Virus record (IMG/VR): IMGVR_UViG_3300009314_000007
Span: 43,337-107,336 of that record
Direction: 5' to 3' (one strand)
Origin: a virus
DNA length: 64,000 bases
Below are positions 23,454-52,671 of this stretch, one piece after another. The translations under genes and the position numbers were made by a program. The notes beneath the pieces were generated by a model. It was not told the DNA's origin and did no database searches. It worked only from the letters and a program-made list of their open reading frames with translations. Each line of letters starts with the position of its first letter. Position 1 is the stretch's first letter.

Positions 23454-24428
23454 ATGGCGAAGTCAACAATCGCTTTGACCACGGAACAGAAGAAGCTGTT
23501 CCAGATGATGCCGAAGCCACTTCAGGCTATGGCTGCGAAGATGAAGAGGGCTACTGACGAGATTGTCAGCCACGAGGTGCTCGGCAAGTACGGGCTCGGC
23601 GAAGAGGTCCGGCGCGTGACCAACAACGAGCGCAAATACGGCGAGGCCGCGGTGCCCACACTGGCCGCGTTTTTGGGCGAGCACCCCAACGTGCTTTGGG
23701 ATTGCCAGCGGTTCTGCAACGCTTACACTCGCACGGAAGTCGAGCGGATGATCAGGCGAGTGGGCGCAGGCGGCCAGCGGATCACTTTTGGGCACCTGAG
23801 AGTGCTTTCCGGGTTGGAGGGCACCGACGCCCTGAAAAAGCGGGTCAGGCTGGAAAAGGCCATTTTGGAGGAGGGGCTTTCGGTTCGCGCGTTGGAGAAG
23901 GCCGTCCAGGCGATACTCGGCTCGCGCACCACGAGTGCTACTCCAGGGCGCAACGTTCGCGTGGCCAAGGATGTGTTGTCGGGTCTTGCCGACATGACCA
24001 CCAACACCAAGAAGCTCGTCAACCGAGTGCCGTCCTGGGAGAAGGGCGTGTTCGTCCGCGTGGCTGCGGGCGACGGCGTGACTAAGAAGACGGTTACGCA
24101 GCTCGAAGCGTCGAAGAAGGTCATGGACGATTCCATCGCGAAGCTCGAAGGTGTGTCCTCGCAACTAGACAAGGCGATCTCCCAGGCAAAGAAGGAGCTT
24201 GCGAAGCCTAATCGACCCGCACCGGCCAAGAAGAAGACGGCTCCGAAGAAGAAGGTCGTGAAGAAGAAGGTCGTGAAGAAGGCGAAGAAGAAGACGACCA
24301 AGAAGAAGAAGGACCCGAAGAAGGCGGCCAAAAAGAAAGTCGTGAAGGCGAAGAAGAAGGTCAAGAAGAAGCGCACGAGCGCTACCGACCGGATTCAGGC
24401 CGCGAGGCGGAAGCGACGACCGGCGTGA
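23454..24428 (+). CDS. ParB/DUF1016-N-like helical DNA-binding protein with histone H1-like Lys-rich tail
   Basis: YGEAAVPTLAAFLG (HTH-like), ITFGHLRVL, EEGLSVRALEKAV (Spo0J DBD-like); coiled coil; about 70-aa K/A/V tail; AGGAAGG RBS. Confidence 0.65.
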   Translation: MAKSTIALTTEQKKLFQMMPKPLQAMAAKMKRATDEIVSHEVLGKYGLGEEVRRVTNNERKYGEAAVPTLAAFLGEHPNVLWDCQRFCNAYTRTEVERMIRRVGAGGQRITFGHLRVLSGLEGTDALKKRVRLEKAILEEGLSVRALEKAVQAILGSRTTSATPGRNVRVAKDVLSGLADMTTNTKKLVNRVPSWEKGVFVRVAAGDGVTKKTVTQLEASKKVMDDSIAKLEGVSSQLDKAISQAKKELAKPNRPAPAKKKTAPKKKVVKKKVVKKAKKKTTKKKKDPKKAAKKKVVKAKKKVKKKRTSATDRIQAARRKRRPA

Positions 24429-24439
24429 CGTGTTGCGTT

Positions 24440-24526
24440 GGCCCCACCACGTGAGATCGCCCTGATCGAAGTTGAGTGCTCTATTTGAGACTGCTTCGAT
24501 CCCGACCTGGCACTCCAGTGGGGACC
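24440..24526. other. structured intergenic element (candidate ncRNA)
   Basis: CCCCAC/GTGGGG encloses GATCGAAG(24464-71)/CTTCGATC(24494-501) and CTGG/CCAG stems. Confidence 0.35.
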
Positions 24527-24637
24527 CCTTTAGGCAGAAAGGCTCGCAGGGTTTGCGGCGGGTCTGGGTGTGGACGGAAAATGCCGAATCTACCAGGGAC
24601 GCTGGCCCGGCTAGGTGTATTAAGCCCGATCTTACCA

Positions 24638-25462
24638 ATGGCGAAATCCACACAACGCATCACGATTTCCGCTCTCTTCTACGGGGATTACCCGCAGCTT
24701 GCCGAACGCTGTCTTGGCACGCTTGCGGGTTCTCTCCTGGAGGGGGAGGACTACCTTCAGGACATTCGGCTGATTCTGAACGACTGTTGTCCCGAGACGT
24801 ACTGCTTCGCGACAGACTGGGCCACACGAGTGCAGGATCTGCATGGGGTGCCAGTTATTCGCTACGTTACGGAGGAAAACCAGTGTAAGTATCCGCTCAT
24901 GCGGAGAATCTGGTGGGACGATCCCCAGAAGCCCGCTTCCTTGCTGATGTGGTTCGACGACGATAGTTTCCTGGATCATCCCAAGCCGGGGTGGTACGCG
25001 GACATTGTCGATCAGATACAGGGTTGCGACATGCTGGGGCAGATCTGGCATCAGCCCATGCTGGGGAATCAATGGGCTTTCATTGTCCAGCAGCCGTGGT
25101 ACAATGCCCGGGCAGGTCAGCCGCCCAGGTACAAGGGCCGTCGTTGCTTTCGTTTTTGCCAGGGCTCATGGTGGGTGGCTCGTCGCGATGTTCTCCACCG
25201 GTACGATTGGCCCACCAAGGCCCTGAAGCACAATGGTGGGGATTCGCTATTTGGCGAGCTGTGTAGACAGCAGGGATTGCGACTGCGGCACTACGACCGG
25301 GGTGTGCGTCTCAACGCGGACGAGAAGGGGAGGCACTCCAAGTCACTGCGGCGAGGTCGCAGTGAACCTAATTTGGGGCGGCACTACAAACCGCAGGTGG
25401 CTCTGGATTTGAGTCACCATAACTTTAACTTGGCTAGGATGGCCGTTCCGGAAGGCTACTAG
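24638..25462 (+). CDS. GT-A fold (GT2-like) glycosyltransferase
   Basis: RLILND, KYPLMR, LMWFDDDS (DxD), GGDSLFGE. Confidence 0.75.
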   Translation: MAKSTQRITISALFYGDYPQLAERCLGTLAGSLLEGEDYLQDIRLILNDCCPETYCFATDWATRVQDLHGVPVIRYVTEENQCKYPLMRRIWWDDPQKPASLLMWFDDDSFLDHPKPGWYADIVDQIQGCDMLGQIWHQPMLGNQWAFIVQQPWYNARAGQPPRYKGRRCFRFCQGSWWVARRDVLHRYDWPTKALKHNGGDSLFGELCRQQGLRLRHYDRGVRLNADEKGRHSKSLRRGRSEPNLGRHYKPQVALDLSHHNFNLARMAVPEGY

Positions 25463-25464
25463 CC

Positions 25465-25950
25465 ATGCTCCGACCAGGTTTTCGTATTCAGGTAGAACGA
25501 TTCGATATTTCTGCGCAGTTCCGGCAGGTTGGCAGAGCGCCAGTAGCTGGGTCCGAGGAGCAGATTGGAGTCGTTGTCAAAAAAGATCTGGGCAATCCCA
25601 GTGGCCAGCGCGTGCGAGTTCGTCACGCGGCCCACACCACGGGCGATCACTGGCTGGTGTTGCAGGAGAAGCTGCCACCGGAGAATCCGGCCGACATGCG
25701 GTGGAGTCTAAGCAAGACCGACCCGCAGGTTTTTGTGCCGATGTTCGCCTATCTACTCCCGGACCCAGATCCACTGGTACTCGTTCACTTTGGAGCCCAG
25801 ACGGGGGCTCTCGCCGTGGCTTTGCTTCCAGGGAGTCAGCGGATCAAAAAGATGTTTCTTGCCATTGGTAATGTTTTGCAGCGTCCGGATGGCCAGCCCG
25901 GGTATCAGACCTGGGTTGGCTTTGCCGCGGTCGCCGAGAAAGGAGCCTAA
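25465..25950 (+). CDS. hypothetical protein
   Basis: Coupled ORF. Confidence 0.6.
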   Translation: MLRPGFRIQVERFDISAQFRQVGRAPVAGSEEQIGVVVKKDLGNPSGQRVRVRHAAHTTGDHWLVLQEKLPPENPADMRWSLSKTDPQVFVPMFAYLLPDPDPLVLVHFGAQTGALAVALLPGSQRIKKMFLAIGNVLQRPDGQPGYQTWVGFAAVAEKGA

Positions 25951-25951
25951 G

Positions 25952-26746
25952 ATGAGCAGTGCTGGTCTTATCCAGAATAGCGCTACAGCGCCACCAACCG
26001 CGCCGCCACAGCCGGTGCATCCGCATCACGAGGGGATTCCCGCGCAACCCGTGGTAGCGATGAGTCCCACACAGGCCGCCGAGCAGGCTTTCGCGCAGCC
26101 CTTGGCGCCGCAACCCGATCCGAGCAGACCCACGATAACTCCGCAGGAGGCATATCAGACGCCCGCGAATCCCGAGTCCGTGCCGCCGCATACGGAGCAG
26201 CAGCACGACACCGGGCTGGCCATGGACCAGGTGATTCGCGGGTTTGTGGACACCGTGAATCGTTGGGAGATCATCAATTCGGCCTATCGTGGTATCCAGG
26301 AATCCGTGACAGGCAAGCGGCAGCCACCTGTCGTGAGCTTCCCCACTGGGGTGCATAACGACGAAGGGGACCCGGAGATCTGCGAGATTGATCTGAACGC
26401 CGTGATCCCGACAGGCATCCCGGAAGAGCAGCGAGTGCAGAAGCTGCGGGAGATGCTCACACCTTGGAACAACTATCTGGTGAAGGAGTGGCAGCGGCTG
26501 TGGATGAAGCTCATGTTCTTCGCGATGCAAGGTGCCGCGAGTCTCGATCCTGAGCATCTCCTGCAAGAGGCGGCGAAGGTCATGCTCCGCAGTCCGGATC
26601 GGCTGCTCGACCTGGCTACGCGGTTGAGCGAGAACATGCGGGCGGTTGCCGAGCAGCCACCAGCACCTCCCGCGCAGCCGCCCGCACCTCCGACTGCGCC
26701 TCCAACGGCGGTTGGTTCCTCGCAGCTCCCCGCGGTGCCACAATGA
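25952..26746 (+). CDS. Pro/Gln-rich hypothetical protein
   Basis: AAGGAG RBS; low-complexity termini. Confidence 0.65.
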   Translation: MSSAGLIQNSATAPPTAPPQPVHPHHEGIPAQPVVAMSPTQAAEQAFAQPLAPQPDPSRPTITPQEAYQTPANPESVPPHTEQQHDTGLAMDQVIRGFVDTVNRWEIINSAYRGIQESVTGKRQPPVVSFPTGVHNDEGDPEICEIDLNAVIPTGIPEEQRVQKLREMLTPWNNYLVKEWQRLWMKLMFFAMQGAASLDPEHLLQEAAKVMLRSPDRLLDLATRLSENMRAVAEQPPAPPAQPPAPPTAPPTAVGSSQLPAVPQ

Positions 26747-27303
26747 GCGAGTCCAATAACGTTATTGCGAATCCCGAGGACACTAATCCTCGGGACGGAT
26801 GGAGGGTCAAGGAGTTCGAGGCGTCCATGGACGATTCGATCTCGTTGTGGCTGGAGTTCGTGCAGGACGGCGTTCCGCGGGAGGAGCATAGTTTCTGCTT
26901 GCGGAGATGGCTGCAAGACACCAGCATCAATTCCGGCCAGCGGGAGCGGTTGCGGGCCGTGGTGACGGCGATTGCTCGGTATGCGAATCTGGGCGGGCCA
27001 CTGTCGGCCCTGGATGACGTTGTCCGCAGGATGGAGGACACCGGCCTGGTGATTGACTGGGCGGGCTGGAGCGTGCTGGACACGCATCAAGAGCCGGATG
27101 ATGTGATTCACTACCTGGTCAACGGGGCTGGGGAGGTGTTGGTGTGGGCCGAAGACTCGTATTTCGAGCTGACGACGTTGGACGAGTTGAATCAGGATTT
27201 GTTGCATGAGAGCGAGGACGTACCCAATAGGGAAGATCCTCCACCTGAAGGGCCAGATCCTATCGGACCCGGAGGTGGAGTGCTTCCTGGACCAAGAGAT
27301 TAA
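26743..27303 (+). CDS. acidic hypothetical protein
   Basis: ATGA overlap. Confidence 0.65.
   Translation: MSESNNVIANPEDTNPRDGWRVKEFEASMDDSISLWLEFVQDGVPREEHSFCLRRWLQDTSINSGQRERLRAVVTAIARYANLGGPLSALDDVVRRMEDTGLVIDWAGWSVLDTHQEPDDVIHYLVNGAGEVLVWAEDSYFELTTLDELNQDLLHESEDVPNREDPPPEGPDPIGPGGGVLPGPRD
26754..26767. repeat. dispersed palindrome copy 3 (CAATAACGTTATTG), inside 5' end of CDS
   Basis: Perfect copy. Confidence 0.9.
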
Positions 27304-28976: not shown

Positions 28977-29034
28977 ATCTCGGGCTTGTAGGATGCTCTT
29001 TTTGTTGGTAAGATCGTCGGTGGAGGTATCAATA

Positions 29035-29661
29035 ATGGTGCTACGACGATACTCGAAAACGAGACCCGGGCAGCGACGGTGCGCTAGACGAGTCGCGAAG
29101 GCTTGCCAGGCTCGGAATGGTTGGTGGCCCATCTCGGTTTATGCCGCGAGCAGCACGAACAAGGATGGACTGCACTCGTATTGTCCCGAGTGTCGAAAAC
29201 ACTTGGTAAGGGCGTACAAGAAGAAAAACCGCGAGAAGCTCTCGCAGTATCAGCGAGAGTGGCGGGCAAGGAACCCGGAAAAATACCAGCAGCTTCAGGA
29301 TAAACATCACGCGGAGAACAGAGAGGCCCAGCGAGCGTATACGCGAGCATATAAAAAAGCGAACCCCGTGCGGAATCGTTCGTGGAATAGGGCTCGCAGA
29401 CTCCGCTTCGCGGTCGCAGGGCGGCTGACCGATAGCGACTGGGAGGAGGTGTTGCAGAGATATGGCCGTGATTGTCTTTGTTGCGGTGTTGGCGAGGGCA
29501 TCACTATTGATCACGTCGTACCAGTTCCCGCAGGTCCGAATGACAAGAGCAACGTGCAGCCGCTTTGTCGTGGTTGCAATAGTAGCAAGGGTCGCAAGGA
29601 GACAGACTATCGGTTCGATGGAGGACGGCATTTCGGAAATCAAGGTGACGAACCCGATTAG
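29035..29661 (+). CDS. HNH endonuclease (McrA-like zinc HNH)
   Basis: CLCC...TIDHVVP...NVQPLCRGCNSSKG; N-terminal CPEC; GGAGG RBS. Confidence 0.88.
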   Translation: MVLRRYSKTRPGQRRCARRVAKACQARNGWWPISVYAASSTNKDGLHSYCPECRKHLVRAYKKKNREKLSQYQREWRARNPEKYQQLQDKHHAENREAQRAYTRAYKKANPVRNRSWNRARRLRFAVAGRLTDSDWEEVLQRYGRDCLCCGVGEGITIDHVVPVPAGPNDKSNVQPLCRGCNSSKGRKETDYRFDGGRHFGNQGDEPD

Positions 29662-29669
29662 GAGGGCGA

Positions 29670-30149
29670 ATGTTCGTATTGAGTAACAGGAGCTGGACCA
29701 CGTCGAGTGGGCAGCACGCCACGGGATCATTCCTGTTGGTGTTTCAGCGAGGCTGGGATTTGGGGGTGGAGCCGCAGCCACGTGAGTTGCGGTGCCTGTT
29801 GCGTCACGTTCGTATGAATCAGTGCGGGCAGTTTATGATGGGGGAGGTGAAGTTTCGGCTTCCCGGGGAGGACGGTTCGGTACGTATCGGATTGTCGGGT
29901 TCGTTGGGCAATGACGATCTGCCTCTCACGGTGCCCAAATTTGAGCAGGCACCCACCGAGATTCCGGCGAGACTGTGGGAGTTGCTCACGGTTATGCCGG
30001 AAGAGCTTTCAGAGGCGTTTTGGCGGGGTAATCGTGAGGACGGTTCGCTTGACCGGTCGCTTAGACAGATTCGGTTGTGGGCGAGGAAGAACGTGTTACA
30101 GCTTCGGCGGCTGCACGTACCCGAGCAGAAGATGGGAGTGGTTCCGTGA
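29670..30149 (+). CDS. hypothetical protein
   Basis: AGGAGG RBS. Confidence 0.65.
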   Translation: MFVLSNRSWTTSSGQHATGSFLLVFQRGWDLGVEPQPRELRCLLRHVRMNQCGQFMMGEVKFRLPGEDGSVRIGLSGSLGNDDLPLTVPKFEQAPTEIPARLWELLTVMPEELSEAFWRGNREDGSLDRSLRQIRLWARKNVLQLRRLHVPEQKMGVVP

Positions 30150-30151
30150 TT

Positions 30152-30352: not shown

Positions 30353-30354
30353 CT

Positions 30355-34411: not shown

Positions 34412-34618
34412 ATGCCCAGGAAATACGAGATCCGCGTACTGATGATGCCCTGTGGGGGTGTGAATCCGCGGACAGGGTTGCGAGTAGGCAGTAGGCACCG
34501 GTGGCTTGACGGCTGGGGTGAGGGCTGTTGCGAGTGGTGTGGGAGAACTCTCGACAGTCTGCGAGGACGGTATCGTGTTTACGAGGATGGCAGAATTGCT
34601 AGGGAGGAAGATTCGTGA
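34412..34618 (+). CDS. small Cys-containing hypothetical protein
   Basis: GGAG RBS; coupled to next gene. Confidence 0.5.
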   Translation: MPRKYEIRVLMMPCGGVNPRTGLRVGSRHRWLDGWGEGCCEWCGRTLDSLRGRYRVYEDGRIAREEDS

Positions 34619-35370
34619 AGATAGTAGCGGAGATGCGCTTGAAACACGGAGTGCTTCGGGAGCTAAGGGAAAAGTACGGGACGCTGAAACGAGTTGCCGA
34701 GCTTATCGGGGCTCCGTATCAGACTTTGTGTAATTGGGCCGCTTTGCGCGCCGCGCCTACTGCGGGGCAGTACAAGGGCGCATACACCGAGGAGATCGAG
34801 CAGAATCTAGTGTTGCTGAGTGGGGTGCCCGCGGGGGAGATTTTCCCGCCAGCTCTGCGAGAGGCAATACCGGCGCTGCGAGAAGGACCGGAGCTTGTTC
34901 GCGAGGTAGAGCTGGCTCCCGAGGCTTTGTTAGAGCTGGCGCGAAGGGCGCAGGAGAGACTGGAGGCTCCCGATCCGGCGAGGGGGGCGATGGTGGGAGA
35001 GCTTCGCGAGCGCATGTTGGTTGTGCTTAGCGAGTTGCCAGTCCGGTCGCAGCATATTCTTTGTATGCGGTACGGCTTGGCGCCGTACACTCGCGAACAC
35101 ACGCAGAGGGAAGTTGGAAAGAAATTCGGGGTGGAGCCTACGAGGATCTCGCAACTAGAGCAACGAGCGATAAGGGAGTTGCAGCAGCCTTCTCGAAGCC
35201 AGTTGCTTGTGGGATTTGTTCCGGAGGGTCGGCCGAGTCTCTCCTCCGTACAACGGTTGCAGGACGAGGCTGCGAACAAGTCAATACACGATATTGCTCA
35301 GGAAAGAGAGCAACGAAGACACAGGGAAAGGAGAAAAGATGGGGACGCAAGCGGTTGTGTCGGTGATTGA
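34615..35370 (+). CDS. transcription regulator: N-terminal HTH plus sigma70 region 4 domain
   Basis: TLKRVAELIG..YQTLCNW; LPVRSQHILCMRYGL...HTQREVGKKFGVEPTRISQLEQRAIRELQ. Confidence 0.85.
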   Translation: MKIVAEMRLKHGVLRELREKYGTLKRVAELIGAPYQTLCNWAALRAAPTAGQYKGAYTEEIEQNLVLLSGVPAGEIFPPALREAIPALREGPELVREVELAPEALLELARRAQERLEAPDPARGAMVGELRERMLVVLSELPVRSQHILCMRYGLAPYTREHTQREVGKKFGVEPTRISQLEQRAIRELQQPSRSQLLVGFVPEGRPSLSSVQRLQDEAANKSIHDIAQEREQRRHRERRKDGDASGCVGD

Positions 35371-35923: not shown

Positions 35924-36177
35924 TGGCCTGGGTCATATCTATCCTGACGATCATCAGCGTGGAGTTGACAATCCGCAAGAGCTGGCTGGGTTGGCTGATC
36001 GCCTCGCTCAACCAGGTGCTGTGGTTCATTCTCATTGTTGGCATGAAGGAGTGGGGACTGCTTCCGCTCAATGCTTACATGTGCGTGCAAAGCTGCCGTG
36101 GTGCCCGCCGGTGGTACAAAGAAAGGGAGATTGCGAATGTCGAAAAAGAAGCTGACGTGGGAAGTCCAGACGGGTGA
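35923..36177 (+). CDS. small PnuC-like membrane protein
   Basis: Three hydrophobic segments; RKSWLGWLIASLNQVLW...W pattern. Confidence 0.55.
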   Translation: MAWVISILTIISVELTIRKSWLGWLIASLNQVLWFILIVGMKEWGLLPLNAYMCVQSCRGARRWYKEREIANVEKEADVGSPDG

Positions 36178-37001: not shown

Positions 37002-38309
37002 ATGCCCGATTTCAAAGACACTCAGCGGCAGCTCCCTCCCCTTGAGTATTATCGGGAGATGGACAAGGAGGCGGTTCAGAAGATCGCCGACGAGACGACC
37101 AAGCTCATCTCCGGGGAGAAGGGCGGGGATCGTTTCCTCAACAACGTTTCCGGGGTTATCTTGGGCTCGCTTCAGGCGTACCAGGTCGCTCGCACGGCAT
37201 TGAGTCGTCGATGCCAGGAGTTGGGGGTTAGCACGGACGTGGAGGGCTGGCTTGTCCAGTCGATGCACGGCCACGTAGGCACCGAGGAGGTGACCCGACA
37301 GCAGGTGCTCAGCAAGCTGAAGGACCTGGTGCTCCCGTTTCTGATGGCGGAGTTCCAGGCCGAGGGTGAGCGGGAACAGTCCGCGGTGGTCCAGGCCGAC
37401 AAGGCCGAGGATACATCCAGACGACAGCAGGATGTGCCCATCGGTTACCCCGCGGCGCCTTTGTGGCCCAAGGAAGACGCGGGAGAGGCCATGATGTCCC
37501 GGGAGCGTCCACTAACGTTAGTGGGAGATCCGGGCGTGATCGACGTGTGTCTGAACCACATTCAGACGAGGTGCCTCACGAGCAGCTCAGGCGGTTTTCG
37601 TCCCAACGTGTTGAGACTGACCACACGGCTGAAAGAGCACAACGTGCTGCACAAGAAGGGCGACGAGAAGCAATACTTCGAGGTGGGAGCCAATCGCTGG
37701 GCCAACTGTGGTGCCAGTGGGAGTCGTCTCAAGCGAGAACTGACGCCTTGGCTGCGGTTGCTCCGCAAGCGCCGAGTGGACCTCCTGATTATCGAGGATC
37801 TGCCGTTGTTTGTGGGCGGTTCGGATCGGCTACCTCCCCAGCAGCGTGCCGGGCAGGGGCTACGAGCACTGACCCGCTGGGCCGAAGAGACGGGATGTGC
37901 TGTGGTGGCCGCCGTCCCGCTGGAGCGAGAGAAAGACAAGAAAGCCTCCGAGCTGGTGCATCCTTCGCTGGACGGCACCTGGTCGAATCTGGAAGTGTAT
38001 TCCAATCTGGTGCAGCTTGATGTGGCGGGGAATACTAGCGATGAGGAGACATACGTACTGTTTGCTCAGCAACATGGCGACGACAGGACCTGCGAGGTTT
38101 TGGAGTCCGCGGTGAGCAAGAAACTTATTGACGACTGGAGGAAACGTGATAACGCAGATTCCGGAGATGATAGTGATCGGGTACACGGTGAGAAACCGGC
38201 CAGGCCTGTGGCAGGTCCTGGGAGACCCGCAACCCCCGCAAAATTACGGGGCGGACGCGGCCGAAAAGTGGCGAAGAGAAAAGCTGCCAGACATAAAGGC
38301 AAAGGTTGA
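37002..38309 (+). CDS. hypothetical protein with degenerate RecA/DnaB-like C-terminal fold
   Basis: RRVDLLIIEDL and LTRWAEETGCAVVAAV resemble DnaB Walker B/H3 regions; no intact Walker A. Confidence 0.5.
   Translation: MPDFKDTQRQLPPLEYYREMDKEAVQKIADETTKLISGEKGGDRFLNNVSGVILGSLQAYQVARTALSRRCQELGVSTDVEGWLVQSMHGHVGTEEVTRQQVLSKLKDLVLPFLMAEFQAEGEREQSAVVQADKAEDTSRRQQDVPIGYPAAPLWPKEDAGEAMMSRERPLTLVGDPGVIDVCLNHIQTRCLTSSSGGFRPNVLRLTTRLKEHNVLHKKGDEKQYFEVGANRWANCGASGSRLKRELTPWLRLLRKRRVDLLIIEDLPLFVGGSDRLPPQQRAGQGLRALTRWAEETGCAVVAAVPLEREKDKKASELVHPSLDGTWSNLEVYSNLVQLDVAGNTSDEETYVLFAQQHGDDRTCEVLESAVSKKLIDDWRKRDNADSGDDSDRVHGEKPARPVAGPGRPATPAKLRGGRGRKVAKRKAARHKGKG
37510..37523. repeat. dispersed palindrome copy 4 (CACTAACGTTAGTG), mid-CDS
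   Basis: Perfect palindrome with symmetric A>C and T>G changes. Confidence 0.88.
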
Positions 38310-40891: not shown

Positions 40892-41080
40892 ATGCCCAAG
40901 ATGGAAATCCGGGGTGCCGCCGTGTTGCAGCGGAAACGACACCCGAATGGAGGTTTGCTGGTCAAGCTACGGAAGCCGGGCCGCAGACCTTATTGGAGGC
41001 GCATGAGTTGGGAAAGTTACCAAGCCCAACTTGTCGCCAGCTCCCACAGGCTCAAGGATGGGGTGACAGCAAGGACTTGA
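40892..41080 (+). CDS. small basic protein
   Basis: 62-aa ORF after leader. Confidence 0.5.
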   Translation: MPKMEIRGAAVLQRKRHPNGGLLVKLRKPGRRPYWRRMSWESYQAQLVASSHRLKDGVTART

Positions 41081-41097
41081 TCTGGAAGGAGTTTAGG

Positions 41098-42720: not shown

Positions 42721-42754
42721 CGGAAGATGGGAAGTGAGGTGGAAGAAACCGAGG

Positions 42755-42798
42755 TTGAGTGTGGGGCGGGAGACCGCCCCACACTCGGTCTTTTTCTT
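42755..42798 (+). terminator. intrinsic terminator
   Basis: 13-bp stem GAGTGTGGGGCGG/CCGCCCCACACTC, GAGA loop, then GGTCTTTTTCTT. Confidence 0.85.
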
Positions 42799-42845
42799 AT
42801 CCATCAGATGGTGTAAGCTATTTCGGACCCGACAAGGACAATCTT

Positions 42846-44462
42846 ATGACCCAGGTGATTACACTTCAGGCCGGTGGCAGCGGTTCCGATGTTCGCCGAG
42901 ACTGGTCCCCGATTGCGCAGCCCCCCGACCGCAATGGCATTATCGCCCATACGCCTAATCCGGGGGGCTATCACGATATGGGTGGCCGTACGATGCTGCC
43001 GAGACACACGCAGTTCGGGGGCTCCAAAGGCTTCGATACTCGCCCGGGGATTGTAAATGTTGACCCGGCGGACCCTGTTCGAGGAGAGGGCGGCGTTACC
43101 GTGGACCTGGAGTTAGTATCCAAGGAGGCGTTTATTCGAGCCGCCGAGTTTAGTGGCGGCGACCCGATTGCGGCGTGGGACTTGGCGGCACAGGCTCAGA
43201 TAGGCGGCCCGGGCGTGGTACAATTGGCGCCGGGGCAGCCGCAAGCGGCGGCGCCGATCAGCCCCGCCCCCTTGCAGCAACCTACGATAGGCGCGGCCGC
43301 AGTTCCCGTTACGAACATGTACGAGGCACTGCAACAGCCCACACAGTCGGACGCTGGCGGTACCTACGTGCAGATGGCGCCGGGAGCTGCGGCTCCGGGT
43401 TACGTTGTTCCTCACACCAATCCAAGTGGCGGAGTGATTCCGCGGGAGAATGCGAACATGTCAAATCCGATAGGGCCCGGGGGCGGCCTGATGCCCGCGG
43501 CCGGAATGGCCACACTTACCAACCCGAACGTTAAGCAGAAGGAGGCCGGTGTGAACACGCATGCTGAACAATCTCCTTGGGAAGGCGCCGCAGCAAGCCC
43601 GCCCGCGGGGGCACCGGTTCTGCAACCACCCGGGCAGCCCGGAGCGCAGATGCCGGTGGCGACACCACCCGGGCATCCCGTAGTGCCGGGTCCAGTGCAG
43701 TACGCCGCTCCGCCCGGCTGGACGCCGCCCGCGCAACACGCTCCCATGCCGACGCAAGTGCCAGCGCCAGCCCCGGCGCCGGTAACGATGGTGCCCGTGC
43801 CGATGGCGGTGGGACCTCCGACTCCTCTCGCGACGGGCGAGCCCGCTCCGCAGGTGGGCGTTGACGCCGTGCAGCACGCGATGCTGGAGGCGCTCAAGGA
43901 GCTTGGGGACCAGGTGAAGAGCCTGCAAAATGGTCGCGGTGCCGCTCCGAGCGACTGGGAGTTGACCAAGCAAGGTGCGCCTGGGCAGGCCGAGAGTCAG
44001 GAAGAGACACTGCCTGAGGGCGTCGAGTACGCCGACACTCATTCCTGCGGATTAGGCTTTCTTACCAACCCACCGTCTCGACCCAGAATTGAAGTCATCT
44101 TCGATCTGGGAGTCGGTGGTCTGCACACCAAACGATTCCACTGGGCGGCGTTCCGCAATGGCTGCCTGTCGCTGTTCTTCGATACTCGTAGCGATTACGA
44201 TCAGTTTGTGCCGCCCGAGACGCTTGAGGATTCTCACACCATTGGCGTGCGTATCCCGTCGCGACAGCTTGACGTACGGGTGAAGTGTTTCCACAATAAC
44301 CACCAGAGGTTTGGTTGCGTGGATCAGTTGAATTTCACGGTCTGGACCACTCCCGTCGAAGTGGACCATGGGCCGCCAATCGCCACACACGATACTCTCC
44401 AGGAGCTGCATACTCTCGGCGGAATGGCTGAGGAGCTTAGCGAAGGGGGAGGTTGGGGCTGA
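42846..44462 (+). CDS. Pro/Ala/Gln-rich protein with C-terminal beta domain
   Basis: AAGGA RBS; long ORF upstream of portal. Confidence 0.7.
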   Translation: MTQVITLQAGGSGSDVRRDWSPIAQPPDRNGIIAHTPNPGGYHDMGGRTMLPRHTQFGGSKGFDTRPGIVNVDPADPVRGEGGVTVDLELVSKEAFIRAAEFSGGDPIAAWDLAAQAQIGGPGVVQLAPGQPQAAAPISPAPLQQPTIGAAAVPVTNMYEALQQPTQSDAGGTYVQMAPGAAAPGYVVPHTNPSGGVIPRENANMSNPIGPGGGLMPAAGMATLTNPNVKQKEAGVNTHAEQSPWEGAAASPPAGAPVLQPPGQPGAQMPVATPPGHPVVPGPVQYAAPPGWTPPAQHAPMPTQVPAPAPAPVTMVPVPMAVGPPTPLATGEPAPQVGVDAVQHAMLEALKELGDQVKSLQNGRGAAPSDWELTKQGAPGQAESQEETLPEGVEYADTHSCGLGFLTNPPSRPRIEVIFDLGVGGLHTKRFHWAAFRNGCLSLFFDTRSDYDQFVPPETLEDSHTIGVRIPSRQLDVRVKCFHNNHQRFGCVDQLNFTVWTTPVEVDHGPPIATHDTLQELHTLGGMAEELSEGGGWG

Positions 44463-44465: not shown

Positions 44466-44630
44466 ATGCACGAGAAAAGAGGTATCATCGAAGCTGGTAG
44501 GACAAACCCGGAACGCGCGAGTGATCCGAAGAACGAGGAAAAGCAGGCATCCGTCGAGCAGCTTGACGACGACGTGACCAAGCGCGCGGCGGACGCAGTG
44601 GCCAGCGAGTTCCAAGAGGAAGTCCAATAA
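44466..44630 (+). CDS. 54-aa hypothetical protein (absent from ORF track)
   Basis: Manual translation MHEKRGIIEAG...EEKQAS...TKRAA...EEVQ*; fills gap exactly. Confidence 0.55.
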   Translation: MHEKRGIIEAGRTNPERASDPKNEEKQASVEQLDDDVTKRAADAVASEFQEEVQ

Positions 44631-44638
44631 CGTTAATG
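44625..44638. repeat. dispersed palindrome copy 5 (CAATAACGTTAATG), contains the TAA stop of the upstream ORF
   Basis: One mismatch; extended TC...GA flanks. Confidence 0.85.
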
Positions 44639-44649: not shown

Positions 44650-45141
44650 ATGGAAGTCATCTGTCACAAGAAGTGTCGCGACTGGCTTGGCTTCTTAATC
44701 AAGTTGTTCACGTGGGGGCCGTACAGTCACACAGAGCTGCGATTTTCGGACGACGTGTGTTTTTCCGCTTCCTGGGTAAAGGAGCGGCGGGGCTTTTTGG
44801 GTCTCTTTGGAGTTCGAGCTGGCACGAGGTTCAAAAAGATCGAGCTGAAGCCCGAACGATGGGACCGCTGGAAGATCACTCTTAGTCCGGAGGAGGAGGC
44901 CAAGATTCGAGCTTGGTGCAAGCAGCGGGCGGGGCGTCCGTACGACATACTGGGTATCCTTGGCTTTGTTCTCTTCAAGGACATCGACGCTCCATTCGCT
45001 TGGTATTGCTCGGAGATCAGTTCCCGAGCACTTACCGTCTTCGGGATCTTCAGGTTTCCAAGCCAGATTTCTCCTAACGGCATGGCTCGCATCATGCGAG
45101 CGCACCCGAACATTTTCCAGCCAGTCACAGAGAGCGAGTAA
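44650..45141 (+). CDS. permuted papain-like NlpC/P60 (YiiX/YebB-like) amidase
   Basis: YSHTEL...PYDILG...WYCSEI (His before Cys). Confidence 0.8.
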   Translation: MEVICHKKCRDWLGFLIKLFTWGPYSHTELRFSDDVCFSASWVKERRGFLGLFGVRAGTRFKKIELKPERWDRWKITLSPEEEAKIRAWCKQRAGRPYDILGILGFVLFKDIDAPFAWYCSEISSRALTVFGIFRFPSQISPNGMARIMRAHPNIFQPVTESE

Positions 45142-45146
45142 CACGG

Positions 45147-47099: not shown

Positions 47100-47101
47100 A
47101 T

Positions 47102-47159
47102 GAGCCAGCGAAGTCGATAGCTTCGCTGGCTCGGACAATCCAATCTGAGAAGGAGATTG
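47102..47159 (+). promoter_or_regulatory. two-hairpin leader of homing endonuclease; second hairpin covers the RBS
   Basis: 12-bp stem 47102-13/47121-32, then GGACA, then CAATCT/AGATTG around AAGGAG. Confidence 0.7.
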
Positions 47160-47161
47160 AA

Positions 47162-48076
47162 ATGCCAAAAAGCTATTCTAAGCCAACTGCTCGTAATTTC
47201 ATAGATCTTGAAGGCCAGAGATCCGGTCGCCTGCTGGTCTTAGCTTTCCGCGGTATGCGAGACGAGAAGAGCTGGTGGCTTTGCCGCTGTGATTGCGGGA
47301 CTCGCAAGGTGGTTGAAGGCTACTTGTTACGTTCCAAAAGGACGAAGTCTTGCGGCTGCTTGCAGCGAGAGCGGGCCGCGGATACTGGCAGAGCTTCGGC
47401 ACGCCCGAATAGTTTGCGGAGGCAGTATCCGAAAGAGTATCGAGCCTGGGTGTCCGCTCGGCAGCGTTGTCGAGACCCCCAGCATCATTCCTATTCGGAG
47501 TATGGGGGGCGAGGCATCACGTTTTCAGAGGAGTGGGATGCTTTCAGCGACTTCCTTGCCGATGTAGGGCTAGCGCCTCTTCGAGCGACTCTGGATCGCA
47601 AAGACAATAACGAGGGCTACCGTCCCGGGAATTGCCGGTGGACTTCCATGCGGACGCAGATTCGGAATCGTCGGAACACGCTATGGCTGGAATACGACGG
47701 CGAGAGGAGACCGCTAGCTGAGTGGGCCGAAATTGTCGGGATAAGCTACATGACCTTGCGGGGGAGGCTGCGTGCGGGCTGGGCCGCTTGGGCTATTCTG
47801 GCAATTCCGGTGGGGGAGGCCCGATACCGGCTAACTTCGCGAGAGCGCAGGAAGAGGCTTCTAGCCCGGCGGAGGCTACAGTACGCCATGAAGACTGGCA
47901 AAGTTGTTCGACCAGACCGTTGCGAAGACTGCAATAGCAGCGACGGGGTACAAGGGCATCATCATCTCGGTTATGATGGCGACAATGTGTATCGGGTGCG
48001 CTGGCTGTGCTCGGGATGTCATACTGAAGCAGAACAAGGGCAAGGAGGCCGTAGAGAAGGGTGTTTCCGTGTCTAA
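47162..48076 (+). CDS. free-standing homing endonuclease with two HNH-like domains
   Basis: WLCRCDCG...KSCGC; YGGRGI...LDRKDNNEGYRPGNCRW; C-terminal CEDC...GHH..Y...WLCSGCH. Confidence 0.88.
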   Translation: MPKSYSKPTARNFIDLEGQRSGRLLVLAFRGMRDEKSWWLCRCDCGTRKVVEGYLLRSKRTKSCGCLQRERAADTGRASARPNSLRRQYPKEYRAWVSARQRCRDPQHHSYSEYGGRGITFSEEWDAFSDFLADVGLAPLRATLDRKDNNEGYRPGNCRWTSMRTQIRNRRNTLWLEYDGERRPLAEWAEIVGISYMTLRGRLRAGWAAWAILAIPVGEARYRLTSRERRKRLLARRRLQYAMKTGKVVRPDRCEDCNSSDGVQGHHHLGYDGDNVYRVRWLCSGCHTEAEQGQGGRREGCFRV

Positions 48077-48923
48077 GTTTGAGTTCGGTAGTTATGAGTC
48101 TCTTTGCGAGATCACGGTCCCCACTAAGAATGCGCTCGTTCTCGTCTGCCCGGTCTGGCAAGCCTACGTATATTTCCGGAAGACCGTGGAAAGTTTTTTC
48201 CGCTATACTCCTCTTGAGTTGAACCCGATCTGTATTGCCCTGGATGACGCAACTTCCTCTCCGCAATTTCGGGAGCAGAACTGGGACTATTTCTACGCGG
48301 GGCCGTCATTGGATCGTGCCTTACCTCGTGAGCGGATTTGCCACCGATACTTCCACGAAAACGCAGGGCTTACGCGGTCTTGGAATGCGGGGCTGTCAAT
48401 TGCGAGAGAGCTTGGAGCCCAGTACGCCATCGCCGGGAATGCCGATATTCTTTTCACACCGGGCTGGGAAAGAGCCCTTATCCATTTTCTGAATCAGGGT
48501 GTGCGACTGGTTGGTCCTGTGACCAATGCGCCGGGCCGGACCAATCGACAGCGGCAGAGTGTTCGCAACTACTTCCCGAACTATAAGGTCAACGACGACC
48601 GAGAGTACCTGCACAAAGTGGCTGGCTACCTCTGGCGCAACCACGGGGTCGAAACGATTCGGTACATGATGATCAATGGCTTCTTCACCATGTCCACTCT
48701 GGCTCACTGGTTCGAGGGCGCCTTCGACCCGCACCACGTATTCGATCCTAGCAAAAAGATGCAGGGGAACGAGGACGAGTTGGAGGTTCGGTGGCAGCGC
48801 AAGCACTGGAAGATCGGCTTCGTGCCCGGGTCTTTTGTGTTTCATTTTCGGGCGGCGTCTCGGGGCCAGAAGTTCTGTCACACGGGATGGATGCGCACCA
48901 ACGATCCCCACAAACCAGTTTAG
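48069..48923 (+). CDS. GT2-family glycosyltransferase
   Basis: ALDDA, NAGLTRSWNAG, GNADILFTPGW, LVGPVTN, FVFH. Confidence 0.82.
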   Translation: MSKFEFGSYESLCEITVPTKNALVLVCPVWQAYVYFRKTVESFFRYTPLELNPICIALDDATSSPQFREQNWDYFYAGPSLDRALPRERICHRYFHENAGLTRSWNAGLSIARELGAQYAIAGNADILFTPGWERALIHFLNQGVRLVGPVTNAPGRTNRQRQSVRNYFPNYKVNDDREYLHKVAGYLWRNHGVETIRYMMINGFFTMSTLAHWFEGAFDPHHVFDPSKKMQGNEDELEVRWQRKHWKIGFVPGSFVFHFRAASRGQKFCHTGWMRTNDPHKPV

Positions 48924-48932
48924 GAGTCGGGC

Positions 48933-49586
48933 ATGATAACGTACACCGCGATCCTGGGTGGGTTTCCGGATAGGCTCCATCAACCCGCGGAGGGTTTCGG
49001 CCAGCAGAACTCCGTCGCTTTCGTAGATGGCAGTCCCGATTTCTTGGCGCCCGATTTTAAGGACGGCTGGGAGCTGATTCCAACAAACGCCAGAGCGAAC
49101 CCTCGGAGAACGGCAAGACTGCTCAAGGTCTTGGCCCACAAGACGTTCCCCGGCGCCGAGTACACTTTATGGGTCGATGGCTGCCTCACCCCGCTGACTC
49201 CGATGTGGCAGCTCGTCGATCAGTTCCTGTGCAACCACGACATTTGCGTCTTCGAGCATCTGGAGCGGGGCTGTGTGTATCGGGAGCTGGAGGCCTGCAT
49301 CCGGCTGAAGAAGGACGACCCGGCGGTCATGCGGCAGCAGGTGAATGGCTATCGCGAGGAGGGCTACCCGTACAACCATGGACTAGGCGAGACCACGGCG
49401 GTGCTTCGCAGACACAATGAAGTCACCGAGGCGCTTAACGAGGCGTGGTGGGCTGAGATCGAGAAGGGGAGTTTGAGAGACCAGCTCAGTTTCAACTACG
49501 TGTGCTGGAAGCTCGGCGCGGATTACGCCACTTTCGAGGGAAACAGAACGAAGAGTCCGCATTTCAAACACCGGCCCCACCGATGA
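48933..49586 (+). CDS. DUF616 (TOD1/MUCI70-like) glycosyltransferase domain protein
   Basis: YTAILGG, KVLAHKTFP.AEYTLWVDG, H.ERGCVY.E, RDQLSFNYV. Confidence 0.82.
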   Translation: MITYTAILGGFPDRLHQPAEGFGQQNSVAFVDGSPDFLAPDFKDGWELIPTNARANPRRTARLLKVLAHKTFPGAEYTLWVDGCLTPLTPMWQLVDQFLCNHDICVFEHLERGCVYRELEACIRLKKDDPAVMRQQVNGYREEGYPYNHGLGETTAVLRRHNEVTEALNEAWWAEIEKGSLRDQLSFNYVCWKLGADYATFEGNRTKSPHFKHRPHR

Positions 49587-50620
49587 CTCCAACGACAATA
49601 GGAATTCACGCTCCGTACACTTGGGGCGAGACGACGTACATGGCGTTGACCCTGGCGGACCTGGCGGTTCGGTTCGGGCTCCGCACTTCTTTGCTGCCTA
49701 CGAATGTCCATGCAGGGCCGGTTCACTTGCGGTGGGACCCGCATGTGTTGAGCAAGCACACAGATTTTCGTCTTTGGGCTCGCGATTGTTCCCATGTGGT
49801 CTGGTTCGACGTGCAGCAAAACAAGCTGCTCGACGTGAAGGACAAGCCCACCAAGCACGTCCTCGTGTTGCTTTGGCATCGGCTTCGACTCAAAGACTTG
49901 GAGATCCTGCCACTCTACGACTATGTGGTGTGCCCGCACGCACGGGCCATGGAGGTGCTTTCCGGCAAGGTGGAGGCGAACTACGTGGCAGCGCCCTGGG
50001 ACCCGGGCGGCTCGATAGTCGATAGTCCCCAGCGGTACGGCGGGGATCGGTTGCTTGTGGTTCTCGACCCGCACACCACCGAGACGATAGGCCATTTCCT
50101 GCTTCACTCCCTGCATGCTCTCCTGGATGCTTTGCCACGGTTGCAGCTCACTGTCTGGCATGACAAACGATGGACCACGGCGGCGCACAGGGCGTACGGG
50201 GAGCTGATGGCGAAGCACGGGCAGAGGATTCACACCATCCGCAAGCCAACGGACGTGCAGAGGTCCCAGGCTTACGCCACGCACGACTGGGTCTTCTACC
50301 CGTCGATCAGGGACAACGCAAGCCTTCCGCTGCTGGAGGGCCTGTATGCGTCTCGGCCTGGAATCGCCTTCAGTAGCCTGCCGCAGGTGGAGGTGCTCAC
50401 GCAAGGACATGACGGTATGCTGATTCCGTGTGGTAGCCAGGAGACTGCTCTGGGCTCGCACGAAGTCCAGGTGGACCGGCACTTATTGGCCGACGAGTTG
50501 CATAAGATCTTGGCGGATGAGGCGATCTACACTAGACTGAGTCAAACTGACTGGTGGGAATTGTTGCCCCGGAGATACAAGTTTCAGCGTGTTTGGAAGC
50601 AAGTATGGGATTGTCCGTAG
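49583..50620 (+). CDS. GT-B (GT4-like) glycosyltransferase, divergent
   Basis: DWVFYPSIRDNASLPLLEGLYASRPGI...EVL..GHDGMLI. Confidence 0.72.
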   Translation: MTPTTIGIHAPYTWGETTYMALTLADLAVRFGLRTSLLPTNVHAGPVHLRWDPHVLSKHTDFRLWARDCSHVVWFDVQQNKLLDVKDKPTKHVLVLLWHRLRLKDLEILPLYDYVVCPHARAMEVLSGKVEANYVAAPWDPGGSIVDSPQRYGGDRLLVVLDPHTTETIGHFLLHSLHALLDALPRLQLTVWHDKRWTTAAHRAYGELMAKHGQRIHTIRKPTDVQRSQAYATHDWVFYPSIRDNASLPLLEGLYASRPGIAFSSLPQVEVLTQGHDGMLIPCGSQETALGSHEVQVDRHLLADELHKILADEAIYTRLSQTDWWELLPRRYKFQRVWKQVWDCP

Positions 50621-50630
50621 GAGAATAGCG

Positions 50631-50930
50631 ATGGACCCTGGATTACGTGCTCGCTCGGGTAATGTGGACTCTGACGACCAACTTGTCGGGTTCCTATATG
50701 AGCTGATGCGGGATCATCTTCCGTGCGGTGTGGTCGAAAGGCTGGTGAGTAACAGCAACCCGGCCAACACGTCAAATGGTGGCAACTGCCGCTTTACCAA
50801 TGGCTTCCTGGCCAACTACGCGAAGGATTTGAGCCAGAGACTTAGAGGAGACAGAGATGGATGCTGTTCAACTCGGGAAGGAAGCGGCTCGTCGGACGAC
50901 AGCGAAGAGCCGCCAGGTGAAAGTGAATAA
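50631..50930 (+). CDS. hypothetical protein
   Basis: AGGAG RBS. Confidence 0.6.
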   Translation: MDPGLRARSGNVDSDDQLVGFLYELMRDHLPCGVVERLVSNSNPANTSNGGNCRFTNGFLANYAKDLSQRLRGDRDGCCSTREGSGSSDDSEEPPGESE

Positions 50931-51023
50931 GCCGGGTGGCCTCGCGGAGGCTATCCGGGCAACCAAGGCAGATCCCAAGGACGGGCGGCAGTTGCCGTGG
51001 TCTTATGGAGAAAAGAGGCGGAG

Positions 51024-51548
51024 ATGAACCAGGGATTGGTTTTGATGCCGGTGAGTCCAGGAGAGTTATTGGACCGGTTGACTATTCTGAATGTCAAGCA
51101 GGACAAGCTCGATGGTGATAAGCAGATCGCAGCTTTGGAGTTGTCGATGGAGCTGCACGAGGTGGCTGACCCGCTCCTCGACAAGCCGGGTGTTTCCCTC
51201 GTTGCCGATCAACTGTACGAGATCAACACGCAGTTGTGGGAGGTGGAGGACCATTTGCGGGCTGCTGACGGGCAGGTGTTCCCGATCACTGTCGGGCGGA
51301 CGATTACCGAGGAGACCGTGAGGTATTGCTCGCTGGCTCGGCTCGTTTACAACCTCAACGATCAGCGATGTGGTTTGAAGCGAGAGCTTGATGAGATGCT
51401 TGGCGGTGTCGTCGAGCCGAAACAATACGCCGAATACGAGAGATCCCATGACAGAGGACGCCCCGCGGAAGAAAGTGATCAAGAAGAAGGTCATCAGGAA
51501 AGTGGCGAAGAAGCCCCAGGAAGCCCCCGCGGCGAGCCCCGTGGATGA
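51024..51548 (+). CDS. DUF6165-like protein
   Basis: VSPGELLDRLTIL..K, INTQLWEVED, ARLVY.LND.R..LK, EPKQY. Confidence 0.75.
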   Translation: MNQGLVLMPVSPGELLDRLTILNVKQDKLDGDKQIAALELSMELHEVADPLLDKPGVSLVADQLYEINTQLWEVEDHLRAADGQVFPITVGRTITEETVRYCSLARLVYNLNDQRCGLKRELDEMLGGVVEPKQYAEYERSHDRGRPAEESDQEEGHQESGEEAPGSPRGEPRG

Positions 51549-52671
51549 CATCGACATCCCGACCGTCGGACCGGTGATGAAGGACTACGATGTCCAGGAC
51601 GCCTTCGAGTACGACACGGCCTTCAACATGGCCTTTATTGGAGCCGGTGAGGCGGGCGGCCGGATCGTGGAAACATTCTACGGCCTCGGCTACCGGCGAT
51701 TGGCTGCTATCAATGGCGGCGACGAGATCAACCAGTTGCCCGGGGAGATCGCGGCGCTGGATCTGCGTACCGGCGGGGCGGGCAAAGATCCCCAACTCGG
51801 CGCCGCGCAGATTCGAGACCGCGAGGAGGAGATCTTCGAGCTGATGACTCGGGGTTTCGGGAAGAACCCTGACTTCATCCTGGTGTGTGCCGGTTTTGGC
51901 GGCGGTACTGGCGGCGGTGCGGCGCCCAAGCTGATCGACGTGGCTCGCAAGTACATGACGGAGCGGGGGAAAGACCCCGGCAGAGTCGGAGCCATCGTGA
52001 CGCTGCCACATCACGCCGAGGGCTACACACCTTGCCGTAACGCGGTGACGTGTTTCAAGCAGGTTTTTGAGAAGAGACCCTCACCACTTCTGATTATCGA
52101 CAACCTTCGGATTGGGGAGCTAGCACCAGATGCCGAAAAAGGCTGGAGAAAAATCTACCGTTACGCCAACGCGCAAGTTGCCAAGCTCTTCCATCTCTTT
52201 AATCGCTTTGCTGCGACAAGAAGTGAAATCCTTACCTTCGACCGAGCGGACTTCGCTTCTCTCCTTGATTCAGGAATTTGTGTCTTCGGGGCCTCTGCTA
52301 TCGGGACTTACGACAGCCCAGCAGACATTTCTGAAGCAATCCGCGAGCAGTTGGCGGCTACCGTCCTGGCCCAAGTCAGTCTCAAAGAAGGACAGAAAGC
52401 GGGCTGTCTCTTTGTTGGAAGCCCGGAAATTCTTGACTCAGTGCCAGTGGAGTTTTTTGATGGTGGGTTCACGATGCTCACCAGACTACTCCAAGAAAAC
52501 AGCGTTGTGCATCGGGGTGTGTACGAAGGATCTCAGGCCGATTTGCGATGCTACACCATGCTCGCCGGTCTCCCTGCCCCATCCGAGCGTCTCAAAAAAC
52601 TTGCCAGTTCAGGAGGATTAGCGGGCCAAGGAACGGCGGGTTTTCTCGGTGTTGATGACGGAGAACCGTAA
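51448..52671 (+). CDS. tubulin/FtsZ-family GTPase (TubZ/PhuZ/CetZ-like) with Lys-rich N-terminal tag
   Basis: IGAGEAGGRI (T1), GAGKDP (T3), AGFGGGTGGG (T4 signature), IIDN, FDRADF (T7). Confidence 0.92.
   Translation: MTEDAPRKKVIKKKVIRKVAKKPQEAPAASPVDDIDIPTVGPVMKDYDVQDAFEYDTAFNMAFIGAGEAGGRIVETFYGLGYRRLAAINGGDEINQLPGEIAALDLRTGGAGKDPQLGAAQIRDREEEIFELMTRGFGKNPDFILVCAGFGGGTGGGAAPKLIDVARKYMTERGKDPGRVGAIVTLPHHAEGYTPCRNAVTCFKQVFEKRPSPLLIIDNLRIGELAPDAEKGWRKIYRYANAQVAKLFHLFNRFAATRSEILTFDRADFASLLDSGICVFGASAIGTYDSPADISEAIREQLAATVLAQVSLKEGQKAGCLFVGSPEILDSVPVEFFDGGFTMLTRLLQENSVVHRGVYEGSQADLRCYTMLAGLPAPSERLKKLASSGGLAGQGTAGFLGVDDGEP

Follow-up and report, generated by a model that had tools for sequence, protein, structure and literature searches.

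The window analysed here comprises the last 64 kb of a 107,336-bp viral contig from IMG/VR (record IMGVR_UViG_3300009314_000007, referred to below as G000), which has a G+C content of ~58% and holds nearly all of its genes on the + strand. Since CheckV places the completeness of this contig at 51%, the genome is probably that of a jumbo phage of ~200 kb. The elements of interest are a short palindrome, CAMTAACGTTAKTG, which recurs along the contig (the lattice); the open reading frame (ORF) 23454-24428, which encodes a ParB-like protein, P0001; and a gene for a tubulin/FtsZ-family GTPase, P0002, which is followed by an ORF with a hydrophobic N-terminus, P0003. An earlier note on this DNA had joined these parts into a single chromosome-positioning system, in which the ParB-like protein would bind the dispersed palindromes and link them to a tubulin filament and a membrane anchor.

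An evenly spaced palindrome and a ParB-like protein

The palindrome CAMTAACGTTAKTG occurs seven times in the window, where 0.18 copies would be expected, and twelve times in the whole 107-kb contig when <=2 mismatches are allowed. The gaps between these twelve sites range from 4.2 to 12.6 kb, with a mean of 9.5 kb and a coefficient of variation (CV) of 0.25. Evenness was tested against a gene-boundary null, in which gene boundaries are drawn at random and the CVs of the gaps are compared, and just 0.005% of such draws, each of 12 boundaries, matched the lattice in evenness (p ~5e-5). The dispersed palindromes at intervals of about 10 kb that had been reported in the earlier note are thus present, and their spacing is more even than chance. 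The majority of the sites in G000 occupy very short intergenic gaps, in the order stop codon, site, next gene (Table 1). The site at 37510 lies inside a real gene, because the orthologue of the surrounding ORF in a related phage (G003) aligns across the position.

P0001 is a protein of 324 residues, and its ATG start stands behind a good AGGAAGGAAG ribosome-binding site. The first reading of this ORF, with a helix-turn-helix (HTH)-like segment reminiscent of Spo0J/Noc and of DUF1016, a coiled coil and an H1-like tail, was correct on every point. An AlphaFold2 model superposes, over residues 17-156, on the Spo0J, Noc and ParB DNA-binding domains, and the top 10 Foldseek matches are ParB or Noc proteins throughout. 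Similarly, alignment of the model with VIA-align gave Z scores of 9.0-10.6 over 99-121 residues with root-mean-square deviations of 2.6-3.7, with KorB, SopB and VirB ranking lower; for the DNA-binding domains of 4umk, 1vz0, 7nfu, 6y93 and 6t1f the scores were 9.2-10.6 over 114-121 residues. The predicted domain is therefore of ParB type by fold and weakly so by sequence, a distinction that is drawn because chance alone can give helical folds such Z scores. The structural comparison with ParB and Noc that had been suggested for this protein thus favoured the suggested relationship.

The solved ParB-type chains align to P0001 only from their DNA-binding domain onward, and the ParB_N CTPase domain (PF02195) was found neither in P0001 nor anywhere in G000 or three relatives (G001, G003 and G007), as the earlier note had held for the protein itself. 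The C-terminal half of the model consists of two long helices (164-204 and 211-250) and a disordered tail. A ParA-type ATPase (PF13614), present in 14/14 control genomes, was not found in G000 (about half a genome), G001, G003, G004 or G007. As a separate observation, G004 has an ORF at 215718-215963 with a ParB_N domain of the CTPase type, ~5 kb downstream of its P0001-family gene, which is the sole case among five genomes searched.

P0001 belongs to a large family. A profile of five sequences missed the homologues in G002 and G006-G008, whereas a profile of ten sequences recovered them and returned 385, 1750 and 3253 cluster representatives at E<=1e-30, 1e-10 and 1e-3, respectively; scans of viral contigs with single-protein queries returned nothing, an alignment query being required. 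Nearly all of the top 150 representatives are 250-350 residues long and cover almost the whole profile. Nine of ten sampled members match DUF1016_N (PF17761) near its full length, one of them above the cut-off (46.7 bits), and P0001 itself gave no match to that domain at E<=1. The likeness to DUF1016/YhcG proteins ends at the C-terminus, where a coiled coil takes the place of the PDDEXK nuclease; no Pfam match to the YhcG-type nuclease domain (PF06250) was obtained for P0001 or the ten sampled members. A PHROGs search with P0001 gave no match. As such, P0001 is a member of a large uncharacterised family of ~300-residue proteins, in which a ParB/Noc-type HTH without the CTP-binding N-domain is joined to a coiled-coil hairpin and a basic tail.

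Table 1. Positions, in window coordinates, of the lattice sites and of the genes discussed in the text
Feature	Position	Strand	Remarks
Lattice palindrome CAATAACGTTATTG	3391..3404	.	intergenic; next gene starts 24 nt further on
Lattice palindrome CACTAACGTTATTG	14203..14216	.	start of PolA-UDG gene
741-residue ORF, no known family	17443..19668	+	two basic-tag copies; acidic repeat region
RecA-like protein	19702..21210	+	KKKVVKKKVVRK tag at N-terminus
P0001	23454..24428	+	ParB/Noc-type (DUF1016_N-like) DNA-binding domain ~17-156; coiled-coil hairpin 164-250; Lys-rich tail 252-308; short conserved basic C-terminal peptide
Lattice palindrome	26754..26767	.	11 nt past stop codon of ORF 25733-26746
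P0004, sigma-70 region 4 protein	34615..35370	+	rival binder named by the earlier note
Lattice palindrome	37510..37523	.	within ORF 37002-38309, ~codon 170
Lattice palindrome, 1 mismatch	44625..44638	.	14 nt ahead of ORF 44650-45141
P0002, tubulin/FtsZ-family GTPase	51448..52671	+	N-terminal polybasic tag; conserved C-terminal FLGVxD peptide
P0003, hydrophobic N-terminal helix	52671..53252	+	start overlaps tubulin stop (TAATG); lineage-specific
P0142	53281..53781	+	homologue of ~100-residue protein after tubulin in most close group-A relatives; LPDLL..YR / F..WA..YL / NYG..L.N motifs
Lattice palindrome	54913..54926	.	overlaps stop of ORF 53977-54918; next start 21 nt on
Lattice palindrome	62970..62983	.	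within long open-ended ORF 60970-63999 (no homologue found confirming that gene)

Candidate readers of the lattice across the clade

Sixteen related IMG/VR records were read, either wholly or as complete contigs, and most phages of the clade were found to have an AT-rich inverted-repeat word of their own. The search relied on a 1-mismatch palindrome test on a Markov-3 background, a scan for inverted repeats with perfect arms having proved too insensitive. The word of G003, AAAAGTACTTTT (also written cTAAAAAGTACTTTTTAg), has 15 sites with a mean gap of 14 kb and a CV of 0.44, and that of G001, CTAGAA-N6-TTCTAG (CTAGAWKCCAGTTTCTAG), has 24 sites with a mean gap of 8.6 kb and a CV of 0.38. Five records (G002, G007, G008, G016 and G019) have AAATCCGGATTT (also written TTAAAWTCCGGAWTTTAA) in common, with 27 sites in each of the full-length records G002, G007 and G008 (CV ~0.56), and G025 carries the variant AATTCCGGAATT. 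The word of G010 is ATAAGTACTTAT (also written TATAAGTACTTATA), and those of G004 and G009 are variants of CTAAAA-N4-5-TTTTTAG. In G004, G009, G017, G024 and G025 the words are defined only loosely, or were not found in short contigs. With relaxed site sets, the spacing CVs are 0.25-0.58 vs ~0.9-1.0 for the null, and p<=1e-3 was obtained in every genome tested.

Two simple accounts of these words were rejected. Avoidance of restriction sites can be set aside, as the core hexamers AACGTT, AGTACT and TCCGGA show no overall depletion. Likewise, the words are not read as RNA hairpins, because the stems would be short with nearly all A-U pairs, and because the asymmetric word of G001 occurs in both orientations on a one-strand genome (at the 13 exact-core sites examined, every flanking gene has the same strand). 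The mixed orientation of the G001 word and the presence of a site inside a gene are pointers to a role at the level of DNA.

The P0001 family is the best candidate for the reader of the evenly spaced palindrome, at a probability that we would put at roughly one half, and the evidence is circumstantial. In all solved relatives, the fold predicted for P0001 is that of a sequence-specific reader that binds palindromes of 14-16 bp as a dimer. Moreover, a lattice site lies directly upstream of the P0001-family gene, at 13-95 nt, in 9/14 genomes read (G002, G007, G008, G016, G017, G019, G025, G003 and, as a variant, G004), and it is absent from this position in G000, G001, G009, G010 and G024. The recognition-helix classes of the family also match the word classes. 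The helix T[IL]YDLRNV..AF pairs with AAATCCGGATTT in proteins that are 37-51% identical and in genomes of 40-56% G+C; the helix TTLY[NK]LRNFAQEF pairs with the word of G004 and G009; and the helix NVLWDCQRF pairs with the word of G000. Furthermore, the homologues of G003 and G010 are 21% identical and do not form sister branches of the family tree, yet the words of the two phages have the AAGTACTT core in common and their recognition helices a Tyr-Arg pair. Together, the fold, the shared clade, the upstream sites and the helix classes uphold the ParB-like binder of the earlier note as a candidate, short of a demonstrated one.

The analysis shows the folds, the sizes of the families, the lattice with its even spacing and its turnover between lineages, and the synteny; that P0001 binds DNA is inferred from the comparisons above, as is any part that it may play in architecture or regulation. 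A dimer would bind each 14-bp site with one HTH per half-site, and the coiled coil and polybasic tail could then connect or coat adjacent DNA, or act as a transcription block at operon boundaries. Such behaviour would resemble that of KorB or Noc without the sliding clamp.

The joint occurrence of motif, HTH gene and tubulin, which had been proposed as a check, was examined across the relatives. Among the tubulin phage records searched, the P0001 family occurs in 18/18 of group-A type and in none of 11 from group B, and the HTH family and the lattice are both core features of one clade. The tubulin family is also found in phages that lack both of them (G005, G011 and G014). Co-occurrence was dropped as evidence specific to P0001, because the lattice-free phages share only the tubulin with the clade.

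Several observations weigh against P0001 as the reader. The Pfam HTH_ParB match of P0001 is below threshold (E 1.4e-3, residues 108-154), as are its own Pfam matches in general, and the AlphaFold2 model is of moderate confidence, with a mean predicted local distance difference test (pLDDT) score of 69.5. In G000 itself the P0001 gene has no palindrome directly in front of it, the nearest sites being 9 kb upstream and 2.3 kb downstream. With a stricter site set, the spacing in G007 loses its significant evenness (p 0.16). The tracking of words by recognition helices mostly follows phylogeny, and 68 other core genes of G003 show a presence/absence pattern identical to that of the P0001 family. 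Finally, site positions are conserved between genomes whose words differ: four of the six site genes of G003 that have an orthologue in G001 keep a site at the orthologous boundary, vs 7/69 pairs overall (hypergeometric p 5.6e-4), a pattern that would also be expected of a transcription signal with a different reader.

That last point belongs to a rather unlikely alternative, in which the lattice words are boundary signals of transcription units (operators, phage-specific promoter elements or termination-linked sites) that have another factor or the transcription machinery as their reader, with P0001 an ordinary DNA-binding regulator or unrelated. It would account for sites placed in very short gaps between a stop codon and the next gene, for positions that persist while the spelling changes, and for a phyletic pattern common to so many core genes; hairpins with T-runs, judged by eye, also follow some of the sites. 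A dispersed palindrome of this kind is in fact provided by the unrelated phage G005 (loci L130-L140), where TGTATACA occurs in 40 copies. Many of these have GTCAAC ~15 nt off on the same strand, so that the opposite strand reads TTGAC, spacer, TGTATACA, and the word looks plainly like an extended -10 promoter element with a TTGAC -35. However, the G005 word is spaced at random (CV 0.97), unlike the lattice words, and the lattice of G000 has at least one site inside a gene. A scan covering 60 kb of the window found neither a sigma-70-type promoter nor an intrinsic terminator at the six sites within it, and neither class exceeds shuffled controls. The full dyad symmetry of the words and the mixed orientation in G001 argue for a dimeric binder rather than a directional signal. 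The sigma-like protein P0004 was likewise rejected as the lattice reader, as a single-sequence search of limited sensitivity detected no homologue of it in five relatives.

It is improbable that P0001 is instead a non-specific, histone-like nucleoid coat, bound to DNA by its Lys-rich tail and unrelated to the palindromes. A quarter of the protein is H1-like tail, the sole matches of P0001 among PDB sequences are histone H2B tails at chance level, and the protein has a tag in common with other DNA enzymes (see below). Yet the Lys-rich tail is not kept in the family, the homologues in G002, G007 and G008 terminating in acidic or short basic peptides, whereas the ParB-type domain is conserved in every member and has a fold that in the solved relatives reads specific sequences.

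The tubulin module and its proposed link to the lattice

The assignment of ORF 51448-52671 to the tubulin/FtsZ GTPases in the earlier note agrees with both Pfam (Tubulin, E 6.9e-10, above cut-off) and PDB sequences, among which FtsZ, RepX/TubZ, CetZ and c-st TubZ are matched, FtsZ and RepX/TubZ being among the best. All members of the family have the same GGGTGG box and TFDRAD T7-like loop. The family is large, with members on metagenomic contigs of 200-230 kb and 262 loci in IMG/VR. P0002 is a filament-type tubulin/FtsZ GTPase and a core gene of a large uncultured jumbo-phage group.

The coupling of this gene to a putative membrane-anchored ORF was also correctly described, in that the two genes overlap and ORF 52671-53252 opens with a ~20-residue hydrophobic stretch (with a weak HemY_N match). 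In most close (group-A) relatives, the tubulin is followed by a soluble protein of ~100 residues, and since its homologue in G000 (53281-53781) sits just past ORF 52671-53252, the latter is a lineage-specific insertion between the tubulin and its conserved neighbour. The model of the 53281-53781 protein (pLDDT 64.7) gave no clear fold match, HTH-like folds included, and a protein-atlas search gave nothing usable. No DNA-binding Pfam domain was found in the ORFs that flank the tubulin (50589-50930, 52671-53252 and 53218-53781). Around 50-54 kb there is no tandem (iteron) array except the coding repeat of the Lys tag, and the region upstream of the tubulin is free of palindromes. In a distant tubulin subgroup (loci L032-L081, 36-39% identity), a small protein with one hydrophobic helix often follows the tubulin and comes in two or more unrelated forms; membrane proteins thus recur behind tubulin there, though without homology to ORF 52671-53252. 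Just upstream of the tubulin in the window, three glycosyltransferase-like genes stand in a row at 47904-50620 (GT2, TOD1/MUCI70-like and GT1).

The similar basic tag that the earlier note had seen on the HTH protein and the tubulin is present on both, as KKKVVKKKVVKK in P0001 and RKKVIKKKVIRK in the tubulin, and the peptide [AT]P-KKKVVKKKVV[KR]K is conserved at the protein level despite synonymous DNA differences. It is not specific to these two proteins. At least five carry it: P0001 in its tail, the tubulin at its N-terminus, the RecA-like protein 19702-21210, ORF 17443-19668 (twice) and an ORF at 4211-5194 of the contig, and the PolA-UDG gene begins with a weaker Lys-rich stretch. Among tubulins, the tag is restricted to the closest relatives. 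The tag therefore does not single out P0001 and the tubulin as partners, and marks a set of mostly DNA-handling proteins.

We give even odds to the view that the region contains a pair of separate modules, both core to an uncultured jumbo-phage clade (P0001 with the lattice, and the tubulin with the 53281-53781 protein), and not one demonstrated system. In the integrated version, the ParB-like protein on its dispersed palindromes would form a distributed centromere, gripped by the tubulin through the tag or an adaptor and anchored to the membrane by ORF 52671-53252. Every proposed part of this system exists. Phage tubulin partition systems are known, namely TubZRC of phage c-st, and PhuZ. In addition, G003 and G007 each have a lattice site immediately ahead of the tubulin gene, and the ParB-like gene is 15-28 kb upstream of the tubulin in G000, G001, G003 and G004, a loose synteny. 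The tag stands on DNA-handling proteins plus the tubulin, so the tubulin may also sit on DNA.

The connections of the ParB-like protein to a tubulin filament and to a membrane anchor are nevertheless not supported by anything that was found. The link between P0001 and a tubulin filament loses its basis with an unspecific tag, with a conserved tubulin neighbour that is a different protein without an HTH-like fold match, and with tubulins of the same family in phages that have neither the ParB-like gene nor the lattice. The membrane anchor fails as a part of the system, as no homologue of ORF 52671-53252 occurs beside the tubulin in 80 related loci. Furthermore, no lattice site lies near the tubulin in G000, and no clustered centromere, ParA or TubR-like gene was found. 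It is very improbable that the evenly spaced sites, loaded with a clamp-less ParB-like protein, serve as attachment points of a distributed centromere that are moved or positioned by a tubulin filament, with the KKKVVKKKVV tag bringing the tubulin, the RecA-like protein and other tagged proteins onto the same DNA scaffold.

Known systems and other features of the region

The closest functional match to the lattice and its candidate reader is KorB with its OB operators, and the closest in fold are Noc with NBS and ParB with parS. KorB of the IncP plasmid RK2 is an HTH protein of the ParB superfamily that acts on dispersed OB operators as a CTP-dependent sliding clamp (PMC11790492). As in the lattice, one palindromic word is scattered over the whole replicon, at or away from promoters, and the role of KorB is both regulatory and organisational; OB is an AT-rich dyad, TTTAGCSGCTAAA, as are the lattice words. 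RK2 carries 12 OB sites. The systems differ in that KorB has a ParB_N domain, the partner KorA and the ParA protein IncC, whereas no CTPase domain or ParA was found here, and in that the lattice sites are evenly spaced on the replicon of a ~200-kb phage.

Noc and ParB (Spo0J) are the best structural matches of the P0001 domain (Z 9-10.6), the GH.R.L and EGLSVR..E segments of P0001 resemble Spo0J, and the palindromes that Noc and ParB read are 14-16 bp long and dispersed on the chromosome. P0001 is without the N-terminal CTPase, the membrane helix of Noc and the ParA and SMC partners, and its C-terminal part is a coiled coil with a basic tail. A phage ParB that activates thymine dioxygenases keeps the CTPase and dimerisation domains and is without the DNA-binding domain (PMC13229309). 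That class was rejected for P0001, as its domain content is the opposite.

Dispersed dyad repeats as such are already known in phages. Cluster O mycobacteriophages have >30 copies of a 17-bp dyad repeat, mostly intergenic and partly in genes (Cresawn et al., 2015; PMC4351075). The repeats show no association with promoters, and a dimeric protein is predicted to bind them; they have no known function, and no reader was proposed for them (PMC4351075). The likeness lies in inverted-repeat copies throughout a phage genome. The Cluster O repeats are, however, denser towards one genome end, whereas the lattice described here is even, has a candidate reader family and consists of a word that changes between lineages. 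Cluster O mycobacteriophages are also much smaller than a jumbo phage. On the tubulin side, TubZRC likewise has a phage-encoded tubulin-family GTPase, and the PDB matches of the G000 tubulin include TubZ/RepX and c-st TubZ, but neither an adjacent TubR-like gene nor a clustered iteron centromere was found here; PhuZ is not among the matches at E<=0.01.

What is new here is a CTPase-less candidate reader family and its tracking of the lattice words. The family offers a concrete and testable candidate, being widespread (thousands of metagenomic members) and having kept the ParB DNA-binding domain while losing the CTP switch, and its recognition helix varies along with the lattice word. If the proposed binding is true, it would explain the regular marking of a 200-kb phage chromosome, provide a natural set of orthogonal protein-site pairs and show the role of the ParB domain without the clamp. 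The analysis also removes an attractive but unsupported link to the cytoskeleton.

Several other features were seen in the window. The 1149-residue ORF at 14129-17578, which has a lattice palindrome at its 5' end, joins a uracil-DNA-glycosylase (UDG)-superfamily domain (149-312) to a family A DNA polymerase (PolA), and also has a weak match to a 3'-5' exonuclease. Between the P0001 and tubulin genes are located an N6/N4 DNA methyltransferase (36071-37000, E 1.4e-48) and an HNH endonuclease (28993-29661). The strongest terminator-like hairpin of the window stands off the lattice at 42751-42792, between ORFs 40993-42720 and 42759-44462, and has a 19-bp stem with 11 GC pairs followed by a T-run. 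Acidic coding repeats rich in Asp and Glu occur at 19038-19443 and 38904-39043, in two unrelated genes 20 kb apart with similar units.

Repeats of other kinds were noted in the related phages. G003 (loci L085-L095) has ~11-15 copies of a repeat of ~36 nt that contains AAACCGATGAGCAGGTATTACGAT and TAGAAGATGAGAC, and five exact, iteron-like tandem repeats of 36 bp lie near one contig end in G025 (2348-2492, locus L224). The 60-nt and 309-nt tandem repeats of G009 (51.6-53.2 kb, L143) all contain CTGTCA-N6-TGACAG and are probably a coding repeat region.

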